Positions 11,608-64,000 of a stretch of DNA of 64,000 bases are shown in pieces. The stretch is from Promethearchaeota archaeon. Lineage in GTDB: Archaea > Asgardarchaeota > Lokiarchaeia > Sigyniarchaeales > SOKP01. The notes under the pieces are model-generated. The model was not told the DNA's origin. It did not search any database and worked only from the letters and a program-made list of their open reading frames with translations. Where the stretch lies: NCBI GenBank assembly GCA_048940925.1, contig JBHLOC010000026.1, positions 1 to 64,000 of the forward strand, in the 5' to 3' direction. Numbering within the stretch: the first letter of the stretch is position 1; each line of letters begins with the position of its first letter. The position numbers were made by a program, and so were the translations under genes.

Positions 11608-12438
11608 ATGGTATTAAAAAAATCTGAGGGAGATACTGTCAATGAAACTATAATCCCTAATACTATAACTACATTAAAGCGCGATTTTGAAGTTTTGGGA
11701 ATAAAGCATGGATCAATTATTATAATGCATAGTTCTCTTAGTACACTAGGTTGGACTGTTGGAGGTCCAGTGTCTGTTATACAGGCATTAATGGAAACAT
11801 TAACGTCAAAAGGTACTTTAGTAATGCCTACTTTTTCTGGTGATAATACTGAACCTTCTAAATGGGAAAATCCACCGGTGCCTGAAGAGTGGTGGGATAT
11901 AATTCGTAATGAAATGCCCGCATATCATCCAGAAACAACGCCCACTCGAGGAGTGGGTAAAATTGTGGAAATCTTTAGAAAATGGCCCAATGTTATACGT
12001 AGTAATCATCCTACGACATCTTTTGCAGCTTGGGGTAAGTATGCTAAACTTATTACTAAAAATCATAATTTAGAAATAGATTTAGGAGAAAATTCACCTC
12101 TCGCCCGGATTTATGAATTAGATGGTAAAATTTTATTATTAGGAGTTAATCATTCGAATAATACTTCAATTCATCTTGCTGAATATCGATGTGAATTCCC
12201 AGGGAAACGATACATTTTAAACGGCTGTGCAATGATGGTAAATAATGAAAGACAATGGGTCGAATGGGAAGAATTAGATCATAATAGTGATGATTTTGAA
12301 CAACTTGGGAAGGATTATGAAGCTGAAATCGGATATAAACCTGGAAAAGTCGGTTTAGCAGAAGCAAGATTGATTTCACAACGAGATATTATTGATTTTG
12401 CCCAAGGCTGGTTTAAGAAAAACCGTAAGAGTATATAA
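11608..12438 (+). CDS. AAC(3)/YokD-family aminoglycoside N3-acetyltransferase-like protein
   Basis: MHSSLS.LGW.VGG, GTLVMPTFS, RSNHP..SFAAWG, NTSIHLAE. Confidence 0.92.
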   Translation: MVLKKSEGDTVNETIIPNTITTLKRDFEVLGIKHGSIIIMHSSLSTLGWTVGGPVSVIQALMETLTSKGTLVMPTFSGDNTEPSKWENPPVPEEWWDIIRNEMPAYHPETTPTRGVGKIVEIFRKWPNVIRSNHPTTSFAAWGKYAKLITKNHNLEIDLGENSPLARIYELDGKILLLGVNHSNNTSIHLAEYRCEFPGKRYILNGCAMMVNNERQWVEWEELDHNSDDFEQLGKDYEAEIGYKPGKVGLAEARLISQRDIIDFAQGWFKKNRKSI

Positions 12439-12507
12439 TTAATTATATAGCAATTCAGAAATTTTAATTAGAATTGATAAACAGTAACCATTCAATTTCA
12501 TATTATC

Positions 12508-13698
12508 ATGGAAACAGTTTCTACCTCGAAAAACTATAAATTAAACATATACAAATTCTATATTTTCAATATTATTTTGGGCATCCACACAGTAAGAGGT
12601 GTCTACATACCATTTATGATGGAATGGGGTGGTCTTACCTTTTTCCAAATAATGATGTTACAGAGCTATTTCACATTTATGATATTTATTTTTGAAATTC
12701 CGTCTGGTGCGATTGCAGACCGAATTGGTAGAAACTATGCCTTAATGTTATCTGGTGTATTTGTTACTCTTGCTGCCTTAACTTATAGCATCATTCCGAA
12801 TATCTTACTATTCTTCTTAGCTGAGACATTTTGGGCATTTAGTTTAGCCTTATCTTCAGGCACAGACGAAGCATTTTTATTTAATACCTTGAAAACAATG
12901 GACAAAGAAAAAGAACTTCCAAAAATAATAAGTAGAAATCAATCATTGAATCTAATTGCATTAACCTTATCTGCACCCTTAGGTTCTATAATTGCTGAAT
13001 TTATCTCTTTGCAATTTACCATGTTTTGTTTGGCTATAATATATAGTGGAGCTACTCTTGTTTCATTGACCTTTAAAGAGCCAAAGATTGGGATTACTCA
13101 CCAATCGCAAAAATATTTAGCTATTATAAAAGAAGGTTTTCATGAATTAAGAAGAAATAAAATATTGAGAGTCTTGTGCTTTGACAGGGTTTTCATAGGA
13201 GTATTAACTTACTTTTTGTTTTGGACATACCAAGTTTATCTTGGACAAGTTAACATTCCTTTAATATGGTTTGGTTTTATAACAGCATTTATGAATATTG
13301 TTAACATGGTTTTCACGCTTTTAATCCCATGGTTTTTGAAGTCATTTAAAAAAAAGCTAGTATTTTTAATTATTATTGATCTTATAATTGGATGTGCATA
13401 CATTTTATTAGGATTCACAATAAACCCAATTTTAGGTGTTTTGTTGATCTTAACGATTGTAGCTTTTGGTTATCCGAGATATTTAGTATATGTCAATGGA
13501 ATTAATAGGCAAATTAAATCCGAAAATAGAGCAACAGTACTCAGTACTATAAATATGTTTAGAAGTTTTCTTGCGGCTATAATATATCCATTTATTGGTA
13601 TTTTTGTTGAATGGAATCTTTTCGCAGTTTTTATCTTAACTGGAATCTTAATTCTAATTTTTACTGTATTGACGCGTGTAAAAAACGAGTATCTTTAA
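12508..13698 (+). CDS. MFS transporter
   Basis: FEIPSGAIADRIGR, SGTDEA, ~12 TM, ENRATVLS. Confidence 0.9.
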   Translation: METVSTSKNYKLNIYKFYIFNIILGIHTVRGVYIPFMMEWGGLTFFQIMMLQSYFTFMIFIFEIPSGAIADRIGRNYALMLSGVFVTLAALTYSIIPNILLFFLAETFWAFSLALSSGTDEAFLFNTLKTMDKEKELPKIISRNQSLNLIALTLSAPLGSIIAEFISLQFTMFCLAIIYSGATLVSLTFKEPKIGITHQSQKYLAIIKEGFHELRRNKILRVLCFDRVFIGVLTYFLFWTYQVYLGQVNIPLIWFGFITAFMNIVNMVFTLLIPWFLKSFKKKLVFLIIIDLIIGCAYILLGFTINPILGVLLILTIVAFGYPRYLVYVNGINRQIKSENRATVLSTINMFRSFLAAIIYPFIGIFVEWNLFAVFILTGILILIFTVLTRVKNEYL

Positions 13699-57831: not shown

Positions 57832-58440
57832 TTAAAATAAAACATCAAAAAATTCCATATTCTTTACGTTCTTGAGATTATTTTGAAAATAAATCGTTTT
57901 TAATTCTTCTAAAGTCTCTGATTTAAGCTTATCTAAGTGATTATAAAATTTTTCCTTTAATTGGTGGATTTCTTCTTTGAATAATTTGATTGAGTTATAC
58001 ACTTTATAAGATCTATTGATTGAAAAAATCTATTCTCTTTTTTCTAACGTCTCAATAGCATTTTTATTCTTATATTGGCTTTTTTTCATAATAGAACTTA
58101 AAATAGGTAAATCAGCATTTTCTAAAGAAAGGAGGGTGGCATACACTTGTATCTCAAGTTCGAAAACGTTGAATAACTGCATTGCAGAAATAATTTTCTC
58201 ATTTAAATGTATTACTTTTGATTTCTTTCTTAAAGAAGCATTTGTGATTTTTTCAAAATTTATTTGATTATTAATTATAATTTCCCTAGAAGCTAAAACA
58301 TCATTAAATACGTTTCTACCAATATTAGAACGAATTATTACACTATTCCAGCCGCTTTCAGAAGCGCTAACGCTTCTTATAGGGATATCTGAAAATTCAG
58401 CAATAAATTAAGGCATATAAATGATCTTTTTGCACATATC
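57832..58440 (-). pseudogene. Remnant of a FrhB C-terminal domain fused to a TrmB-like HTH
   Basis: AEFSDI...GWNSVIIRSNIG (FrhB C-term), then FELEIQVYATLLSL...LSS....AIETLEKRE* (TrmB-like); in-frame TAG at 58030-58032 and a frameshift near 58408. Confidence 0.6.
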
Positions 58441-58509
58441 AGTATTTGAATAATGTCATTATCTCTATTAAATTTGAATTAAGACTAATGATGCTTTATA
58501 TTGCTAAAA

Positions 58510-59814
58510 TTAATGTGTAGCACATGATATGCAAGGATCAAATGCCCTAATAATAGTTTGAATTTGTTTTTTTACTAATGTTATGTCCCCTGTTTTTTCA
58601 TATAATTTTTGAGCATATTTAGTAATCATTTCATTAATAAGTGGAATATTTATTTCAGTCGCAATAAAAAGTTTCAATTTAATTATTAAGCCGTTATTAT
58701 CAACATAATAATGATGCATAAGAATTCCTCTTGGAGCTTCAACAAATCCGATACCCTCTGGATTTTTTATAGAACTTAAGATAGGAAATTTCTGCTTTAT
58801 AGATAATGAAGGATTATCTAAAATTTTTAATGCTTGTTCTGTTTCAACTAACATTTCTAATAACTTAAGAAACTCAGAGAATAGAATATTATTTATCCAA
58901 GATTTATCAAAATTCTCAAGATACGAGGAAACTTTATCATTTCCATATGTTTCAATGATTTTAAACCTTGCAAGTGGACCCGTTAATACATTTTTTTTTT
59001 TATTAAAATGAAAATCTATCCCCCGTAAATCAGTATCCTTATCAAAATAAAGAGAATAAGATTTTTCTTGGAATTCAATTGCTTTTCTTTCCGATTCCGT
59101 GATTTTAAAAATACCAGAATATCTATCATAAATTCCAAGATTATTTATTCCAATATAAATTGGATTTGGAAGTGAATATTCATCTGGTGGAATTGAATTA
59201 GAAAAATACTCAATAAAGGATTCAATAATCATTTCTAAATTAATTGAAGCTTTTTGCATATATTTTTGGGCTATAGTAATATTCTTTCGGGAAGGTGAAT
59301 AAATCACCCCACCTGGAACCGGAGAAATCAAATGTGCAGATCTCCCACCAAATAAGAATTCAATCTCATTTCCAAATTTAATTAATTCAAACAGGCTAGT
59401 TGTTAATTGTGGATTGAAATTAATTAAATCATATTGCGAAATAGGTTTTTGGTTAATATTAAAAATGGTTAGAAGATCTGGTAATGATTGAAAGAAAAAA
59501 TGCATACAATGCGATTTAATTAACTCTCCACATAACAATAGACGTCTTAAAAGAATTGATTGATCACTAATTTCTACATCGTATAAATTTTCAATTGCTT
59601 TACAACTGGTGATCGCTTGTGACGCATAACATAAACCACATATTCGAGATATTAATTTTGGCATATCAAGTAATCTTTTACCTATTAAAAATTTTTCAAA
59701 TCCGCGATATGCTGAAATCTCGAAATCAACATTTGAAACATTGTCATCTTGAAATAATATATTTATATTTCCATGCCCCTCAACACGGGTACAAACTTCC
59801 ACTGTTTTCAGCAT
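58510..59814 (-). CDS. Group 3 [NiFe]-hydrogenase large subunit (MvhA-like), no C-terminal extension
   Basis: TRVEGHG, RICGLC, GPLAR, EAPRG.L.H, DPCISCATH*. Confidence 0.9.
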   Translation of the reverse strand: MLKTVEVCTRVEGHGNINILFQDDNVSNVDFEISAYRGFEKFLIGKRLLDMPKLISRICGLCYASQAITSCKAIENLYDVEISDQSILLRRLLLCGELIKSHCMHFFFQSLPDLLTIFNINQKPISQYDLINFNPQLTTSLFELIKFGNEIEFLFGGRSAHLISPVPGGVIYSPSRKNITIAQKYMQKASINLEMIIESFIEYFSNSIPPDEYSLPNPIYIGINNLGIYDRYSGIFKITESERKAIEFQEKSYSLYFDKDTDLRGIDFHFNKKKNVLTGPLARFKIIETYGNDKVSSYLENFDKSWINNILFSEFLKLLEMLVETEQALKILDNPSLSIKQKFPILSSIKNPEGIGFVEAPRGILMHHYYVDNNGLIIKLKLFIATEINIPLINEMITKYAQKLYEKTGDITLVKKQIQTIIRAFDPCISCATH

Positions 59815-59821
59815 AATAATA

Positions 59822-60580
59822 TCACCATTTTATTTTTGGTCTTGAAAAACGATAAAATAAATCGTTGTAATTTTTCAAATCTTCAGAAAAATGAATTAAA
59901 CTTAAAAGATTGATAATATTTGACGTAAAATCTTTTGAAACAGGTCCCATACAACCTTCACACGGAATTCCATATTCTATACATTTATATTCACATCCTT
60001 CACGAGTTATGGGGCCTAAACATAAAATTCCTCTTTTTAAAAAGCATTCTGTTTCTTTATCATCAAGATTAATTTCGTTCAAATTAGGGTTAATTTTATT
60101 TATTTCATTAAAAAAATTAATCTTAACTTCCTCTCTTAATGGACAACCAGCACACATATTTTTTTCAGACAACTTAGCATCCTTGTTTTCTATTAATCTA
60201 ATTAAAAAATTTCCAAATAGCTTTATTGGTGGAGGACAGCCAGGTATTATTCCCTCAATCTCAATATAACTAGAGATTGGTTCCGCGATAATTGACCTTG
60301 AAAGACTTAGGATCCCTCCGAATGCTGCACAAGAACCTAATGCATAGACCTTTTTAGCACTTTTTCGGATTTTTTTTAGAAGTGGAATTTCTTTTTCATT
60401 AGAAAGACAACCTTCTATCAGTGCAATATCACAATCTTCGATTTTCTCAGCATCGGAAATAAATGGGAAATAAATAATCCTTGTTCTTTCAAGGAATTGA
60501 GGAAAAATGTCTAATGAAATTAAAGTTGAGATGCAGCCACTGCATGATGTGAGAGAGGCGATAATAATTTTAGGCTTCAA
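59822..60580 (-). CDS. [NiFe]-hydrogenase small subunit (MvhG-like); probable TTG start at 60580
   Basis: SCSGC, GSCA.FGGI, PGCPP, CFL..G..CLGP.T..GC...C......CEGC.GP; GAGGAG RBS. Confidence 0.9.
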   Translation of the reverse strand: MKPKIIIASLTSCSGCISTLISLDIFPQFLERTRIIYFPFISDAEKIEDCDIALIEGCLSNEKEIPLLKKIRKSAKKVYALGSCAAFGGILSLSRSIIAEPISSYIEIEGIIPGCPPPIKLFGNFLIRLIENKDAKLSEKNMCAGCPLREEVKINFFNEINKINPNLNEINLDDKETECFLKRGILCLGPITREGCEYKCIEYGIPCEGCMGPVSKDFTSNIINLLSLIHFSEDLKNYNDLFYRFSRPKIKW

Positions 60581-63119
60581 ATTTAGTCTCCTCTGATAAT
60601 TGTAAATAAAAATTGTTAACGACTTCAGCAAACTTATTACCCTCAACAGCATTCATATGTTCAAGGATAATACGTTTGCTTAAATTCTCTCCTGATATAC
60701 TTTTTAATATTTTAATTTTATTTTCAATTTTTTCTATTCCATCAATATATCTACAAGCGTCTTTTCTGCAACCAATTATCATTACTCCATCAAATCCCAT
60801 TTCGAATGATTTAATAATGAAATTAGTATCAATCCTTCCTGTACAAGGAACTCGAATGATAAATATATTAGGATAATATGAAATTTTTTTTAAGCCAGCA
60901 TTATCAGCAGCAGCATAACCACAAGAGCGACAAGAAAAAGCAATTATTTTTGGACTTCTAGTAAATTGTGAAAAAACTTCAATTGTTTTAAGTATTTTTT
61001 CTGATGTATCTAAATTGAGATCTAATGCATTTGTTGGACAGATACTTACACATGTTCCACATCCTTTGCATTTAAATTTATCAATACTTACTTTATCAGA
61101 TTCTAGTGTAATAGCATTATAAGGGCAGATTTGTGAGCATAATCCACATAAACCACATTTACTTTCATCAAGTTCTATTCCAGAGAATTCTGCAATTAAA
61201 TGATCTTTGAAGAGTAATGAGATTACTTTTAATGCAACATTATTAACAGTGGAAATAGTAGAATTGTAATTTAATGGACCAAATATTGTTCCTACACCAT
61301 AAATTCCAGATGCTAATGTTTCTTCACTCATAAATCCATTATCATCTAAAGTAAAATCCATAACTTTTCTAAATCTTTTTAAATCTTTATTTGGGATAAA
61401 CTTTAGATTTAAAACGATTAGATCGCTAGGGAATTCGATATTATCAGCTATAACGTAATTTATATCTTTATTAGATTCAATAATAATTTTATCTGCATAT
61501 ATAAATGCAGGGTTAGTTGTTCTCAATAAAACTTTCTCTCTCTCTTTTAATTTACTTAAATCGTAAAAAATATTAACTTCACAATTAGGGTTTTTTATTT
61601 TAATATCCTCAATATACTTTTCTGCTAAATTTTCAGAATATTCAGCAAGATATTTTGAAGGTCCAATCTCTTGGATAATAGAAATCGAATTTATGGGTTT
61701 TTTATCAGATAATCTAAGAAGTTTCCCTTCAGTAATGCCATCAGAAGCTAATATCCGCTCAAATTCAGGAGAAGTTATAATATTTTTGTGTGGATCATAA
61801 TGATAAACCTCTAAATTGCTATAAAAGTCAGAACCAATAGCAATAACTTTCACACCAACTTTTATTTTGAGTTTTTCGTTTTTTTGAGTTAAATCTATTG
61901 CCTTATTAACACATGCTCGTTCACAAATTCTACAATTAAGACAATTTTTTATATCTTCTTCATCAATTATTGGGACATATGGATAAGAATGAATAAAGGG
62001 GATGTATATGACTTTCCGATTAGTTAAACCAAATTCATATTGATCTGGCTTTTCTATGCTACATACTTCAATACATTGTTTACATCCAGTACATTTTTTC
62101 ACATCTATATAACGGGGTTTTTTAATTAAATCAAGCGTGAAATCCCCCACTTCTCCTGATACATTTTCGATCTCAGTATTTGTAAAAACTTCTATATTTT
62201 TTTCATTTACTAATTCACTTATTAATTCAGAAATGAAACATATCGAACAATCGCCCATATTATGAATTCGGTGCCACCTGGCAACTTTTCCTCCTAATGT
62301 TGCCGATTTTTCGATAAGATATACTTTAATTCCAGCTTTAGCTAAATTTAAAGCAAGTGAAATCCCTGCAATCCCACCTCCTAAGATGGCACAGCTCTTT
62401 TCTATTTCGACTCTCTTAATTTTTACTTTTTTTTGTAGGTTAACTCGCTCAACAGCAGCTTCAATTAATAGTTTAGCTTTTTCTAAAGAAATTGAGGGCT
62501 CTATATCTTTTTCCTTAAATTCATGTACCCAACAACATTGTTCTCTAATATTTGCTATTTCTATATTTGGTCTATCAATAACTTCATCAAATATTCGTTC
62601 AAACAGAAGTTGATGTGTTCTCGGAGAACACGCTGCTATCACAATTTTATTTAAAAAATTATCTTTGACCCAATTGGTAATTTTAGGAAAATTTTTTTGT
62701 TGACATAAATTATCGAAAACTCTAACTGAAACAACATTTTTTAATTTATTTACATAATTTTCGAGAGATATAATATTAATCACTCTTGAAATTTCTGTAT
62801 TACAATTGCAGATTATAACTCCAATTCTGCTTATTTCGCTCCCTTTTGAATCTAAATACTCATCAATATATTCTCCAGAAAGGATTCTCTTATTAAGATT
62901 AAGAATTTTTAGTATACGTTTTCCATCCTCCGTAAGAAAATATGATTTTTTGTCTTTATCAATAAGTGAACTAAGTTTTTTAAGATGAAAATTCAATTGA
63001 CCCGTTGTTTCCAAACCTAATTTTTCCATTAGCTCTGTATACGGGATATAGCCTGCTTTTTCTAATAGTAGTAAAATTTTCCTTCTAAAAGGATGTGATA
63101 ATACAGAATATATATCCAT
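60570..63119 (-). CDS. Winged-helix (ArsR-like) domain-HdrA-like-MvhD fusion
   Basis: LSHPFRRKIL...TELMEKL....GQLNFHLKKL..L.......LTEDG; AACSPRTH, NIREQCCWVH, GGGIAG, four CxxCxxC motifs; MvhD FSCRSCGYAAAD, RVPCTGR, GC....CRY. Confidence 0.9.
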   Translation of the reverse strand: MDIYSVLSHPFRRKILLLLEKAGYIPYTELMEKLGLETTGQLNFHLKKLSSLIDKDKKSYFLTEDGKRILKILNLNKRILSGEYIDEYLDSKGSEISRIGVIICNCNTEISRVINIISLENYVNKLKNVVSVRVFDNLCQQKNFPKITNWVKDNFLNKIVIAACSPRTHQLLFERIFDEVIDRPNIEIANIREQCCWVHEFKEKDIEPSISLEKAKLLIEAAVERVNLQKKVKIKRVEIEKSCAILGGGIAGISLALNLAKAGIKVYLIEKSATLGGKVARWHRIHNMGDCSICFISELISELVNEKNIEVFTNTEIENVSGEVGDFTLDLIKKPRYIDVKKCTGCKQCIEVCSIEKPDQYEFGLTNRKVIYIPFIHSYPYVPIIDEEDIKNCLNCRICERACVNKAIDLTQKNEKLKIKVGVKVIAIGSDFYSNLEVYHYDPHKNIITSPEFERILASDGITEGKLLRLSDKKPINSISIIQEIGPSKYLAEYSENLAEKYIEDIKIKNPNCEVNIFYDLSKLKEREKVLLRTTNPAFIYADKIIIESNKDINYVIADNIEFPSDLIVLNLKFIPNKDLKRFRKVMDFTLDDNGFMSEETLASGIYGVGTIFGPLNYNSTISTVNNVALKVISLLFKDHLIAEFSGIELDESKCGLCGLCSQICPYNAITLESDKVSIDKFKCKGCGTCVSICPTNALDLNLDTSEKILKTIEVFSQFTRSPKIIAFSCRSCGYAAADNAGLKKISYYPNIFIIRVPCTGRIDTNFIIKSFEMGFDGVMIIGCRKDACRYIDGIEKIENKIKILKSISGENLSKRIILEHMNAVEGNKFAEVVNNFYLQLSEETKFEA

Positions 63120-63227
63120 TACTGAAATCCCTTCTTTTTTATTTTATTTCGAGTAAATAATTCTAAATTTATTAAAATTAAAATAGTAAGTTAAGCATTC
63201 AATATTGGAATTTCTATGTTACTTCTC

Positions 63228-64000
63228 TTAAATTGCTGAAACTTTTGATGAAGATTTCCATTGTATTATTTTATTTTTCATGATTTTATCTGTTCGCTCA
63301 ATTTTAGATCGTGAGAACTGGGTGATTTTTTCTTTTATTTCGTTTATATTGTTATCATCCAAATTTAGACATTCAATTACCCCTGAATTTATCATCTTTC
63401 TGATTAGATTTATTCCTTTTCTAGTACGAGTAATCACAGTTGTATATTTATCTAATGATCCTAATCCTCCAAAAGATATATCAGCATAAATATTAGAGAA
63501 ATCTCTGCAAGCTCCGCAAGCTGATCGCATGTAATTAGTTAACCTCTCAAAGGGAATATGCACCATTTTTTGAGTAGTTCCAGTATTTTTTAACTTAATA
63601 ATTAGATTTTCCTTAATGTTTATTTTTTCAATGTCTTTGAATTTAATATTAAACTGGTTCTCGAATTGTGTAACTTTAGGTCTATCAAAAAAGAAGTTCT
63701 CATAGCAAAATAACCCCAAACTAATATCAATATTTTCTGATGGAATTATTCTTAGATTCTGCATGCACCTGATGGTGTAAATCTGGCATGGTGTTCCAAC
63801 TAATGCTAGTTTCTTAAACCTATAACTCCTTAACTTAGGTAATGAGCTTGTATATGTGTGAAATTTTTGTAAAGTATCTAAATTTGAAGATAAATCTAAT
63901 TTAATGCCTGAAGAATTTATTAAGTCCTCTCTACTTTTAGCAATTATAGCTTCTCTCGAAAAGGGAGCCTGTGTTTTTGACACAATTGCCCCATCAATTA
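63228..64000 (-). CDS. FrhB/FdhB-family (F420-hydrogenase beta-like) subunit, 5'-truncated by window
   Basis: IDGAIVS, VGTPCQI, GLFCYENF, CGACRDF....ADISFGG, T.VITRT.KG. Confidence 0.88.
   Translation of the reverse strand, partial: IDGAIVSKTQAPFSREAIIAKSREDLINSSGIKLDLSSNLDTLQKFHTYTSSLPKLRSYRFKKLALVGTPCQIYTIRCMQNLRIIPSENIDISLGLFCYENFFFDRPKVTQFENQFNIKFKDIEKINIKENLIIKLKNTGTTQKMVHIPFERLTNYMRSACGACRDFSNIYADISFGGLGSLDKYTTVITRTRKGINLIRKMINSGVIECLNLDDNNINEIKEKITQFSRSKIERTDKIMKNKIIQWKSSSKVSAI

Follow-up and report, generated by a model that had tools for sequence, protein, structure and literature searches.

A winged helix fused to an HdrA-like hydrogenase partner in Asgard archaea, and a conserved palindrome that it may bind

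The operon and its genes

We analysed a window of 64,000 nucleotides (nt) from a Promethearchaeota archaeon of the Lokiarchaeia (GenBank assembly GCA_048940925.1, contig JBHLOC010000026.1, positions 1 to 64,000; this contig is C85 below). Close to the end of the window, the list of open reading frames (ORFs) places four tightly packed genes on the minus strand. They encode an FrhB-like protein, a fusion protein of 849 amino acids (aa), and MvhG-like and MvhA-like [NiFe] hydrogenase subunits. The fusion protein, P0001, consists of an N-terminal winged helix-turn-helix (wHTH) domain, an HdrA-like flavoprotein denoted HdrA*, and a C-terminal MvhD domain. We argue that it may be an enzyme subunit that also regulates its own operon. 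The genes and domains of the operon are as follows.

63228 to 64000, continuing past the window to contig position 64376, minus strand: FrhB-like gene, 382 aa, the first gene of the operon here
60570 to 63119, minus strand: P0001, the wHTH-HdrA*-MvhD fusion, 849 aa (ORF; Pfam and NCBIfam domains; alignment to solved HdrA and MvhD; 366 homologs of the same architecture)
62895 to 63119, minus strand: N-terminal ArsR-type winged helix, residues 1-75 of P0001 (DUF7347 score, AlphaFold2 (AF2) model, Foldseek)
61620 to 61688, minus strand: former HA4 [4Fe-4S] site, residues 478-500 of P0001, with none of four cysteine (Cys) ligands left (alignment to 8rvu HdrA)
60573 to 60953, minus strand: C-terminal MvhD/FlpD domain, residues 723-849 of P0001 (PF02662, expect value (E) 1.8e-33; 5odc_D, E 4.6e-22)
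59822 to 60580, minus strand: MvhG-like [NiFe] small subunit, 252 aa, TTG start (Cys alignment to 5odc_E; overlap in L010 and L011)
58510 to 59814, minus strand: MvhA-like [NiFe] large subunit, 434 aa (Ni motifs; solved relatives 7t2r_D and 5odc_F)

The start of the MvhG-like gene was reassigned to a TTG codon at 60580, which is preceded by an AGGAG motif. This start overlaps the stop of P0001 by 11 nt, the overlap is identical in relatives L010 and L011, and MvhG is translationally coupled to P0001. The triad of HdrA*, MvhG, and MvhA is complete wherever a locus extends far enough to cover all three genes. The FrhB-like gene, which an earlier, sequence-only reading of this DNA had counted as a member of the complex, was ruled out as a core subunit: it adjoins the triad only in the window's genus (g1), its orientation varies among relatives, and a close relative has it on the opposite strand.

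The fusion protein and its distribution

Residues 95-715 of P0001 align to solved HdrA chains (8rvu and 5odc, E 2e-102), and the FlpD/MvhD match at residues 725-841 scores 115.6 bits against a cut-off of 22.3. The GGGIAG motif is kept, and the thioredoxin-reductase-like core of HdrA is present. The Cys of the MvhD [2Fe-2S] cluster (C730, C733, C759, C784, and C789) are invariant in 27 relatives. The domain scores, the alignment to solved chains, and the overlap with MvhG bear out the architecture and the coupling to MvhG and MvhA that had first been proposed from the ORFs.

The best NCBIfam match of P0001 was HdrA2 (NF040770), at 564 bits against a cut-off of 1100; the NCBIfam HdrA models gave 360-403, below their cut-offs of 1300-1400. 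A check for hdrB and hdrC upstream and across the locus, suggested with the sequence-only reading, returned no HdrB or HdrC homolog in the conserved unit (HdrD465 as query, and the loci of relatives), and an HdrD-like gene 8.7 kb away is part of another operon. Judged by these scores and by the alignments described below, P0001 departs from HdrA proper in its HA4 cluster, in HdrBC partnership, and in score.

The wHTH-HdrA*-MvhD architecture is common to 366 database proteins and is found on many long contigs. A chimera or misassembly, for which a fusion unique to this assembly would have spoken, was thereby ruled out. HdrA* was found in 94 of 151 sampled Lokiarchaeia genomes, counted with full coverage of residues 1-260, and in 16 genomes of four other Asgard families (f12, f17, f21, and f24) at 36-57% identity. 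MvhG and MvhA always follow it. The expected search result, the same architecture and synteny in other Asgard genomes, was thus obtained, and by these matches the fusion is conserved across Asgard archaea. Mean pairwise identity within the Lokiarchaeial family is 0.74 for the wHTH, among the highest of the domains, 0.77 for the flavin adenine dinucleotide (FAD) domain, and 0.50, the lowest, for the former HA4 segment.

P0001 carries one deviation of its own in the MvhD domain. Codon 729 (window positions 60933-60935) encodes Ser. In 108 of 113 relatives this residue is Cys, the first in the motif FCCxSCGY, and Cys occupies the position even in a relative with 96% identity.

The winged helix

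Scanned alone, the N-terminal domain matched DUF7347 at residues 2-71 (E 5.5e-12, 46.2 bits against a cut-off of 27.6). An AF2 model built on 22 relatives reached a predicted local distance difference test (pLDDT) score of 85.6 and shows the topology H-H-H-H-E-E-H. Nearly all of the Foldseek matches listed were DNA-binding wHTH proteins (YodB, NolR, CadC, HlyU, ArsR, and MarR) with template modelling (TM) scores of 0.6-0.7, and one NolR match was solved on DNA. The Foldseek E-values are weak (best 0.0025), which the shortness of the domain would lead one to expect. Together, the DUF7347 score, the model, and the DNA-binding regulators among its matches sustain the initial call of an ArsR-like winged helix; as modelled, the N-terminus of P0001 is a genuine wHTH of the ArsR/MarR type.

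Throughout the alignment, the recognition helix (T39-K48, TGQLNFHLKK) does not vary, and no other protein of the window genome was found to have it. The invariant polar and basic residues of recognition helix and wing are Q41, N43, H45, K47/K48, K55, and R68. The domain is net basic, and its wing is basic. A predicted complex of two wHTH copies scored 0.33 (mark 0.42) and carries no weight either way on dimerisation.

The cofactor chain and the loss of HA4

In P0001, the canonical HdrA segment C...YCSxxCC is replaced by IQEIGPSKYLAEYSENL. This replacement had been noticed before and was confirmed by the alignment to 8rvu and 5odc. We took a Cys census over 27 Lokiarchaeial family members and five canonical paralogs. 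The four HA4 Cys were kept in 6, 0, 1, and 0 of the 27 members, as opposed to all five paralogs. The ligands of HA3 (four N-terminal Cys), the CxxC pair near the FAD, HA5/HA6, and HA1/HA2 were invariant in 27 of 27 members and five of five paralogs. The cluster lost from the thioredoxin reductase (TrxR) domain is assigned as HA4 by elimination.

In the known complexes, HA4 passes the high-potential electron from FAD to HdrC/B (PMC13580544, PMC12350162), and cluster E4 of BamE is its equivalent (bioRxiv 10.64898/2026.04.10.717634). Electrons from H2 enter HdrA via the C-terminal ferredoxin domain and the [2Fe-2S] cluster of MvhD (PMC13580544, PMC12350162, bioRxiv 10.64898/2026.04.10.717634). 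The low-potential electron exits via HA3, HA5, and HA6 to ferredoxin (PMC13580544, PMC12350162). Read against this layout, the loss of HA4 severs the branch to HdrBC, in keeping with a unit that contains no hdrBC. The protein probably keeps its electron throughput, because all other clusters, including those of the ferredoxin exit, are invariant. An electron wire that runs from H2 and ends in the DNA-binding domain, as first imagined, does not agree with this pattern, since the lost HA4 is the exit to HdrBC and not the entry for H2.

Orthologs from families f12, f17, and f21 retain all four HA4 Cys, have a loop that is 7 residues shorter, and carry the wHTH. The fusion is therefore older than the HA4 loss and not dependent on it. 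From this comparison, the loss of the cluster would not be what turned the protein into a regulator. The possibility that homologs keep the CxxxCC motif and pair with HdrBC as ordinary enzymes holds in part: the f12, f17, and f21 orthologs keep the Cys, the Lokiarchaeial homologs are without the motif, and no hdrBC was found in the conserved unit.

Three other Cys of P0001, Cys195, Cys243, and Cys513, are kept in 27, 25, and 23 of the 27 Lokiarchaeial members and are mostly absent from canonical HdrA paralogs. Judged by sequence position, Cys513 lies just past the former HA4 segment.

The hydrogenase subunits

Both Ni ligand motifs of MvhA (RICGLC and DPCISCATH) are present, and every Fe-S Cys of MvhG aligned with solved 5odc_E. 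The two [NiFe] subunits have all their Ni and Fe-S ligands, as had been read from the translations. MvhA ends exactly at the His of DPCISCATH, without a C-terminal maturation tail; the tail is absent from MvhA in 17 of 20 Lokiarchaeial loci. The best solved relatives of MvhA (7t2r_D, 2.5e-57; 5odc_F, 1.1e-55) both have tails of ~25 aa. In NCBIfam, MvhA scored 185 with ShyA (cut-off 700) and 173 with VhuA (cut-off 800). MvhA evolves faster than HdrA*.

By their nearest relatives, the hydrogenase subunits are of group 3 affinity. Membership in group 2b (HupUV/HoxBC) fails on the same ground, the only shared trait being the large subunit without a tail. No kinase was found in the conserved unit across the loci of relatives.

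A palindromic operator

We searched the upstream regions of 23 Lokiarchaeial loci and found a palindrome with a 16-nt core, GAYAA-N6-TTRTC, and an 18-nt core, TGAYAA-N6-TTRTCA. The 16-nt core was present in 18 of the 23 loci. The 18-nt core had 23 matches in 10,350 nt of promoter windows against 3 in the other 368,692 nt, which makes it ~270-fold denser in promoter windows than in the surrounding DNA; the same pattern read backwards, used as a control, had 0 matches. In other Asgard classes, 15 matches (0 for the control) were found in 80 kb, all ahead of HdrA* or of a homolog of p241, a protein described below. The palindrome is conserved down to 36% protein identity. Its half-sites are constant and its spacers variable, also in a relative with 53% G+C and in the other Asgard classes.

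The sites form two classes. Those of the first are 55-130 nt ahead of the first start codon, immediately past a TTTATATA box, and those of the second are 215-310 nt upstream. Within the operon promoter, the palindrome comes after the TATA box and ahead of the presumed start site. The window genome contains five exact cores in 4.8 Mb. Two of them fall in the 435 bp that separate the FrhB-like gene from a divergent selenoprotein HdrA, and the remaining three are within coding sequence. The operon promoter is located on C85 beyond the window, and the two operators have the sequences TGATAATTATTATTGTCA and TGACAAAATAATTTGTCA.

C85, 64472 to 64479: TATA box of the operon promoter
C85, 64451 to 64468: operator O2, 4 nt from the TATA box on the operon strand and 451 nt past the window end
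C85, 64617 to 64634: second operator

A large regulon was rejected. With at most one mismatch allowed, the genome has 29 copies of the 20-mer and Markov-3 simulations have 20-29, and the cores outside the locus are all in coding sequence. Five HdrA*-positive genomes had 27 sites against 12 for the control, and the excess falls at the HdrA* locus. Five complete genomes without HdrA* had no excess of sites (12 against 17 for the control). A fusion of FrhB with a TrmB-like HTH was considered as the operator binder and rejected: only three of the 23 Lokiarchaeial loci examined were found to have it, and in the window genome it has decayed to a pseudogene, with the operators persisting.

The p205/p241 partner operon

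In most genomes, the HdrA* operon is divergent from a second operon, which encodes p205, p241, an MtdB-like dehydrogenase, and CDC48. In the window genome (G000) this operon is on another contig, and no overlap was found between the ends of C57 and C85.

Contig C57, 95976 to 99308 (L044): operon of p205 (205 aa), p241 (241 aa), MtdB-like dehydrogenase, and CDC48; ahead of HdrA* in L011, L031-L034, and L040-L043

The proteins p205 and p241 are paralogous, their family is unknown, and p241 is fused to the MtdB-like dehydrogenase in several genomes. A p205 homolog (E <1e-25) was found in 91 of 94 HdrA*-positive genomes, as against 2 of 55 genomes that lack HdrA* or have a partial or divergent match to it; in both exceptions, the contig breaks where HdrA* would lie. 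The p205 gene has its own operator ~115 nt upstream, even when it is apart from HdrA*. An operator stands before a p241 gene downstream of MvhA in f12 loci and in one f17 locus out of three.

As a DNA binder, p205 was rejected: its AF2 model (pLDDT 83) had no PDB match (TM <0.36), and its alpha/beta topology is unlike an HTH. An Atlas search of p205 returned only a weak TraB/GumN lead (0.82).

Interpretation

We propose that the unit is a bifunctional trigger enzyme similar to PutA, that is, an HdrBC-independent Mvh-type [NiFe] hydrogenase whose HdrA-like subunit autoregulates its own operon. We give this proposal an even chance of being right. Co-location and co-occurrence suggest that the fused wHTH binds the palindrome. 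It is the candidate binder because the conserved unit has no other recognisable DNA-binding domain, because its recognition helix recurs nowhere else in the genome, because site and protein co-occur, and because the 11-bp spacing of the half-site centres suits a wHTH dimer.

Under this proposal, two N-terminal ArsR-type winged helices would bind the palindrome, whose half-site centres are about one helical turn apart, and the position of the operator would be that of a repressor's site. The wHTH would be attached to the N-terminal domain of HdrA, which in solved Hdr complexes belongs to the arm whose swinging accompanies the catalytic and redox cycle. DNA binding may depend on how far the flavin and the Fe-S chain are reduced, a state that would be poised by H2 via MvhAG and MvhD, and by ferredoxin via HA5/HA6. 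In Lokiarchaeia, the loss of the HA4 branch would reduce the unit to a linear module from H2 to ferredoxin, next to a separate hydrogenase of the Vhu type that has HdrCB.

A more far-reaching version of the proposal can be offered only tentatively, with more doubt than belief. It holds that the hydrogenase complex is a one-component archaeal H2 sensor that sits on GAYAA-N6-TTRTC and is released when H2 reduces the flavin and Fe-S chain. The H2 level would then set the expression of the hydrogenase, of the Hdr/Frh modules, and of the Wood-Ljungdahl-linked operon of p205, p241, the MtdB-like dehydrogenase, and CDC48.

Several observations weigh against regulation by the fused wHTH. The link between the wHTH and the palindrome is drawn from co-location and co-occurrence, and the genomes are related, so the operator and co-occurrence counts overstate their independence. 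The exact operator is missing in the f21 orthologs and in some f5 and f6 loci; a variant operator was sought in f21, and none was convincing. HdrA* was found in none of 13 sampled f2 genomes, two of them closed, and given this absence we know of no culture in which the HdrA* system could be tested. In solved HdrA dimers, the N-terminal domains are on separate arms, and the reach of two wHTH to one 16-bp site is in doubt. Lastly, the wHTH of the MvhD-like protein BamF acts as a protein interface with BamI (bioRxiv 10.64898/2026.04.10.717634).

This contact between BamF and BamI speaks for the alternative that survives best, an ordinary enzyme in which the wHTH serves to dock another subunit or makes the complex more stable, with a distinct, locus-dedicated transcription factor binding the palindromes. 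The catalytic cofactor sites, all conserved except HA4, agree with an ordinary enzyme, and control of Hdr operons by the stand-alone wHTH protein HdrR (PMC11218639) agrees with a separate regulator. However, a structural role does not account well for the invariant polar and basic residues in recognition helix and wing, for the net basic charge of the domain, or for closest folds among DNA-binding regulators, including one whose structure was solved on DNA. A separate general factor is disfavoured by the lack of a genome-wide operator regulon and by the lack of enrichment of sites in genomes without HdrA*. We consider this alternative unlikely, if worth keeping in mind.

We are more sceptical of a pure H2 sensor, which would perform no net catalysis and would report H2 to its fused DNA-binding domain as a one-component analogue of HupUV/HoxBC. 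HA4 and the HdrBC partner are lost in Lokiarchaeia, the large subunit, like that of regulatory hydrogenases, is without a cleavable tail, a separate Vhu-type hydrogenase with HdrCB is encoded in the same genome, and MvhA is faster-evolving than HdrA*; each of these would suit a sensor. However, the FAD motifs, HA3, and HA5/HA6 are invariant, and a dead-end sensor would not need them. Orthologs with HA4 intact carry the wHTH as well.

Least probable of all, in our view, is a sensor of assembly or cofactors, in which unassembled or cluster-free HdrA* represses its own operon and the holo-complex does not, the signal being Fe-S, Ni, or subunits as for aconitase/IRP1 and IscR: the operator is in the repressor position of its own promoter, the wHTH adjoins the HA3 cluster domain, and feoB lies beside the cluster in the window genome, but the regulon includes p205/p241 and the MtdB-like gene and not genes for cofactor supply. 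We favour the bifunctional trigger enzyme over these three alternatives because conservation extends to its flavin site and is complete for the ligands of its shuttle and ferredoxin-exit clusters.

Comparison with known systems

In PutA of proteobacteria, a DNA-binding domain is carried on a flavoenzyme, and reduction of the flavin releases PutA from the put operator. The proposed likeness has three elements: a flavoprotein that carries a DNA-binding domain at its N-terminus, an operator that lies in the promoter of the flavoprotein's own operon, and a redox-driven switch. The folds are unrelated, since PutA combines a ribbon-helix-helix with proline dehydrogenase and has no hydrogenase or Fe-S chain, and the switch is proven in PutA, whereas here it is inferred. 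HupUV/HoxBC (group 2b) are regulatory [NiFe] hydrogenases that signal with the kinase HoxJ/HupT and have a large subunit without a cleavable tail. The Asgard unit resembles them as a paralog beside a catalytic hydrogenase, in its tail-less large subunit, and in a possible role in reporting H2. It differs in being of group 3 affinity, in having no kinase or response regulator, and in the fusion of its DNA-binding domain to an electron-transfer subunit.

The MvhAGD-HdrABC complex of methanogens (PDB 5ODC, 9SW2-9SW6), which bifurcates electrons from H2 to heterodisulfide and ferredoxin, has homologous MvhA, MvhG, MvhD, and HdrA. Both systems have the FAD site, HA1/2, HA3, HA5/6, the CxxC pair, and the [2Fe-2S] ligands. 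In contrast to it, the Asgard unit has HdrA fused to MvhD, an N-terminal wHTH, no HA4 (in Lokiarchaeia), no hdrBC, a tail-less MvhA, and NCBIfam scores below the cut-offs. HdrA2 of Methanosarcina (NF040770) has the same order of HdrA-MvhD fusion as P0001; however, HdrA2 is without a wHTH, keeps HA4, and works with HdrB2C2.

Winged helices are associated with Hdr systems in two other ways. In Methanosarcina barkeri, hdrBCA is activated by HdrR, a stand-alone wHTH protein (PMC11218639). HdrR resembles the proposed regulator in its wHTH and in its target, a palindrome that precedes an Hdr operon; unlike it, HdrR is a separate protein without a redox domain, whereas here the wHTH is part of an HdrA-like enzyme. 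BamF is an MvhD-type adaptor in the HdrA-type complex of class II benzoyl-CoA reductase and carries a wHTH motif (bioRxiv 10.64898/2026.04.10.717634). This motif is internal and contacts BamI, with no DNA role or operator reported. A survey of archaeal fusions lists HdrA-HdrA-MvhD fusions in Asgard archaea and mentions no DNA-binding domain (PMC11237513). The literature that we searched contained no description of the wHTH-HdrA*-MvhD fusion, of DUF7347, or of an Asgard group 3c hydrogenase with a winged helix.

Bacteria sense H2 with a regulatory hydrogenase, a kinase, and a response regulator. To our knowledge, no mechanism of H2 sensing is known in archaea. In Lokiarchaeia, the partial pressure of H2 decides between H2-releasing fermentation and H2-consuming acetogenesis, and it is central to syntrophy models of eukaryogenesis. 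If sensing by this unit is real, a hydrogenase with its own DNA-binding domain, a defined operator of 16-18 bp, and a small conserved regulon would make H2 sensing experimentally simple. Even a merely autoregulated enzyme would define an Asgard-wide HdrBC-less Mvh-HdrA module, along with the unknown partners p205 and p241, whose presence tracks the module almost perfectly.

Neighbouring genes and the second hydrogenase

A second hydrogenase operon is located on contig C48 of G000 (L066:2654-6991, minus strand). It encodes a small subunit of 440 aa and a large subunit of 435 aa, which stops short of the C-terminal Ni motif. The following small ORF carries RCFDCU(TGA)LSCAAH and resembles the VhuU selenocysteine peptide. 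The operon continues with HdrC-like and HdrB-like genes, and its enzyme is a split [NiFeSe] hydrogenase of the Vhu type.

On C85, 812 nt past the window, a 678-aa HdrA is encoded at 64812-66848 (plus strand; L009:7813-9849) with three in-frame TGA codons, presumably for selenocysteine. This gene is divergent from the HdrA* operon, and the operator-bearing intergenic region is common to both. Farther along, C85:68070-73252 (L009:10071-16253, minus strand) encodes an HdrD-like protein (Fer4 and CCG, one TGA), a tandem HdrA of 1037 aa, MvhD, and a second FrhB-like protein. In the closest relative, this Hdr-type operon is divergent from p205. The feoB gene adjoins the hydrogenase cluster in the window genome.

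Downstream of MvhA, the window contains the remnant of the FrhB-TrmB-like fusion mentioned above.

57834 to 58410, minus strand: decayed FrhB-TrmB-like HTH fusion (intact orthologs of ~497 aa in L024 and L030)

The last ~190 codons are kept, the N-terminal part is deleted, and there is an in-frame TAG at 58032, where relatives have Trp. In the intact form (L024, about 11810-13300, plus strand; L030), a ferredoxin-like domain, FrhB_N, and FrhB_C are joined to the TrmB-like HTH. Judged by these orthologs, the remnant is a second fusion of redox domains with an HTH at this locus.

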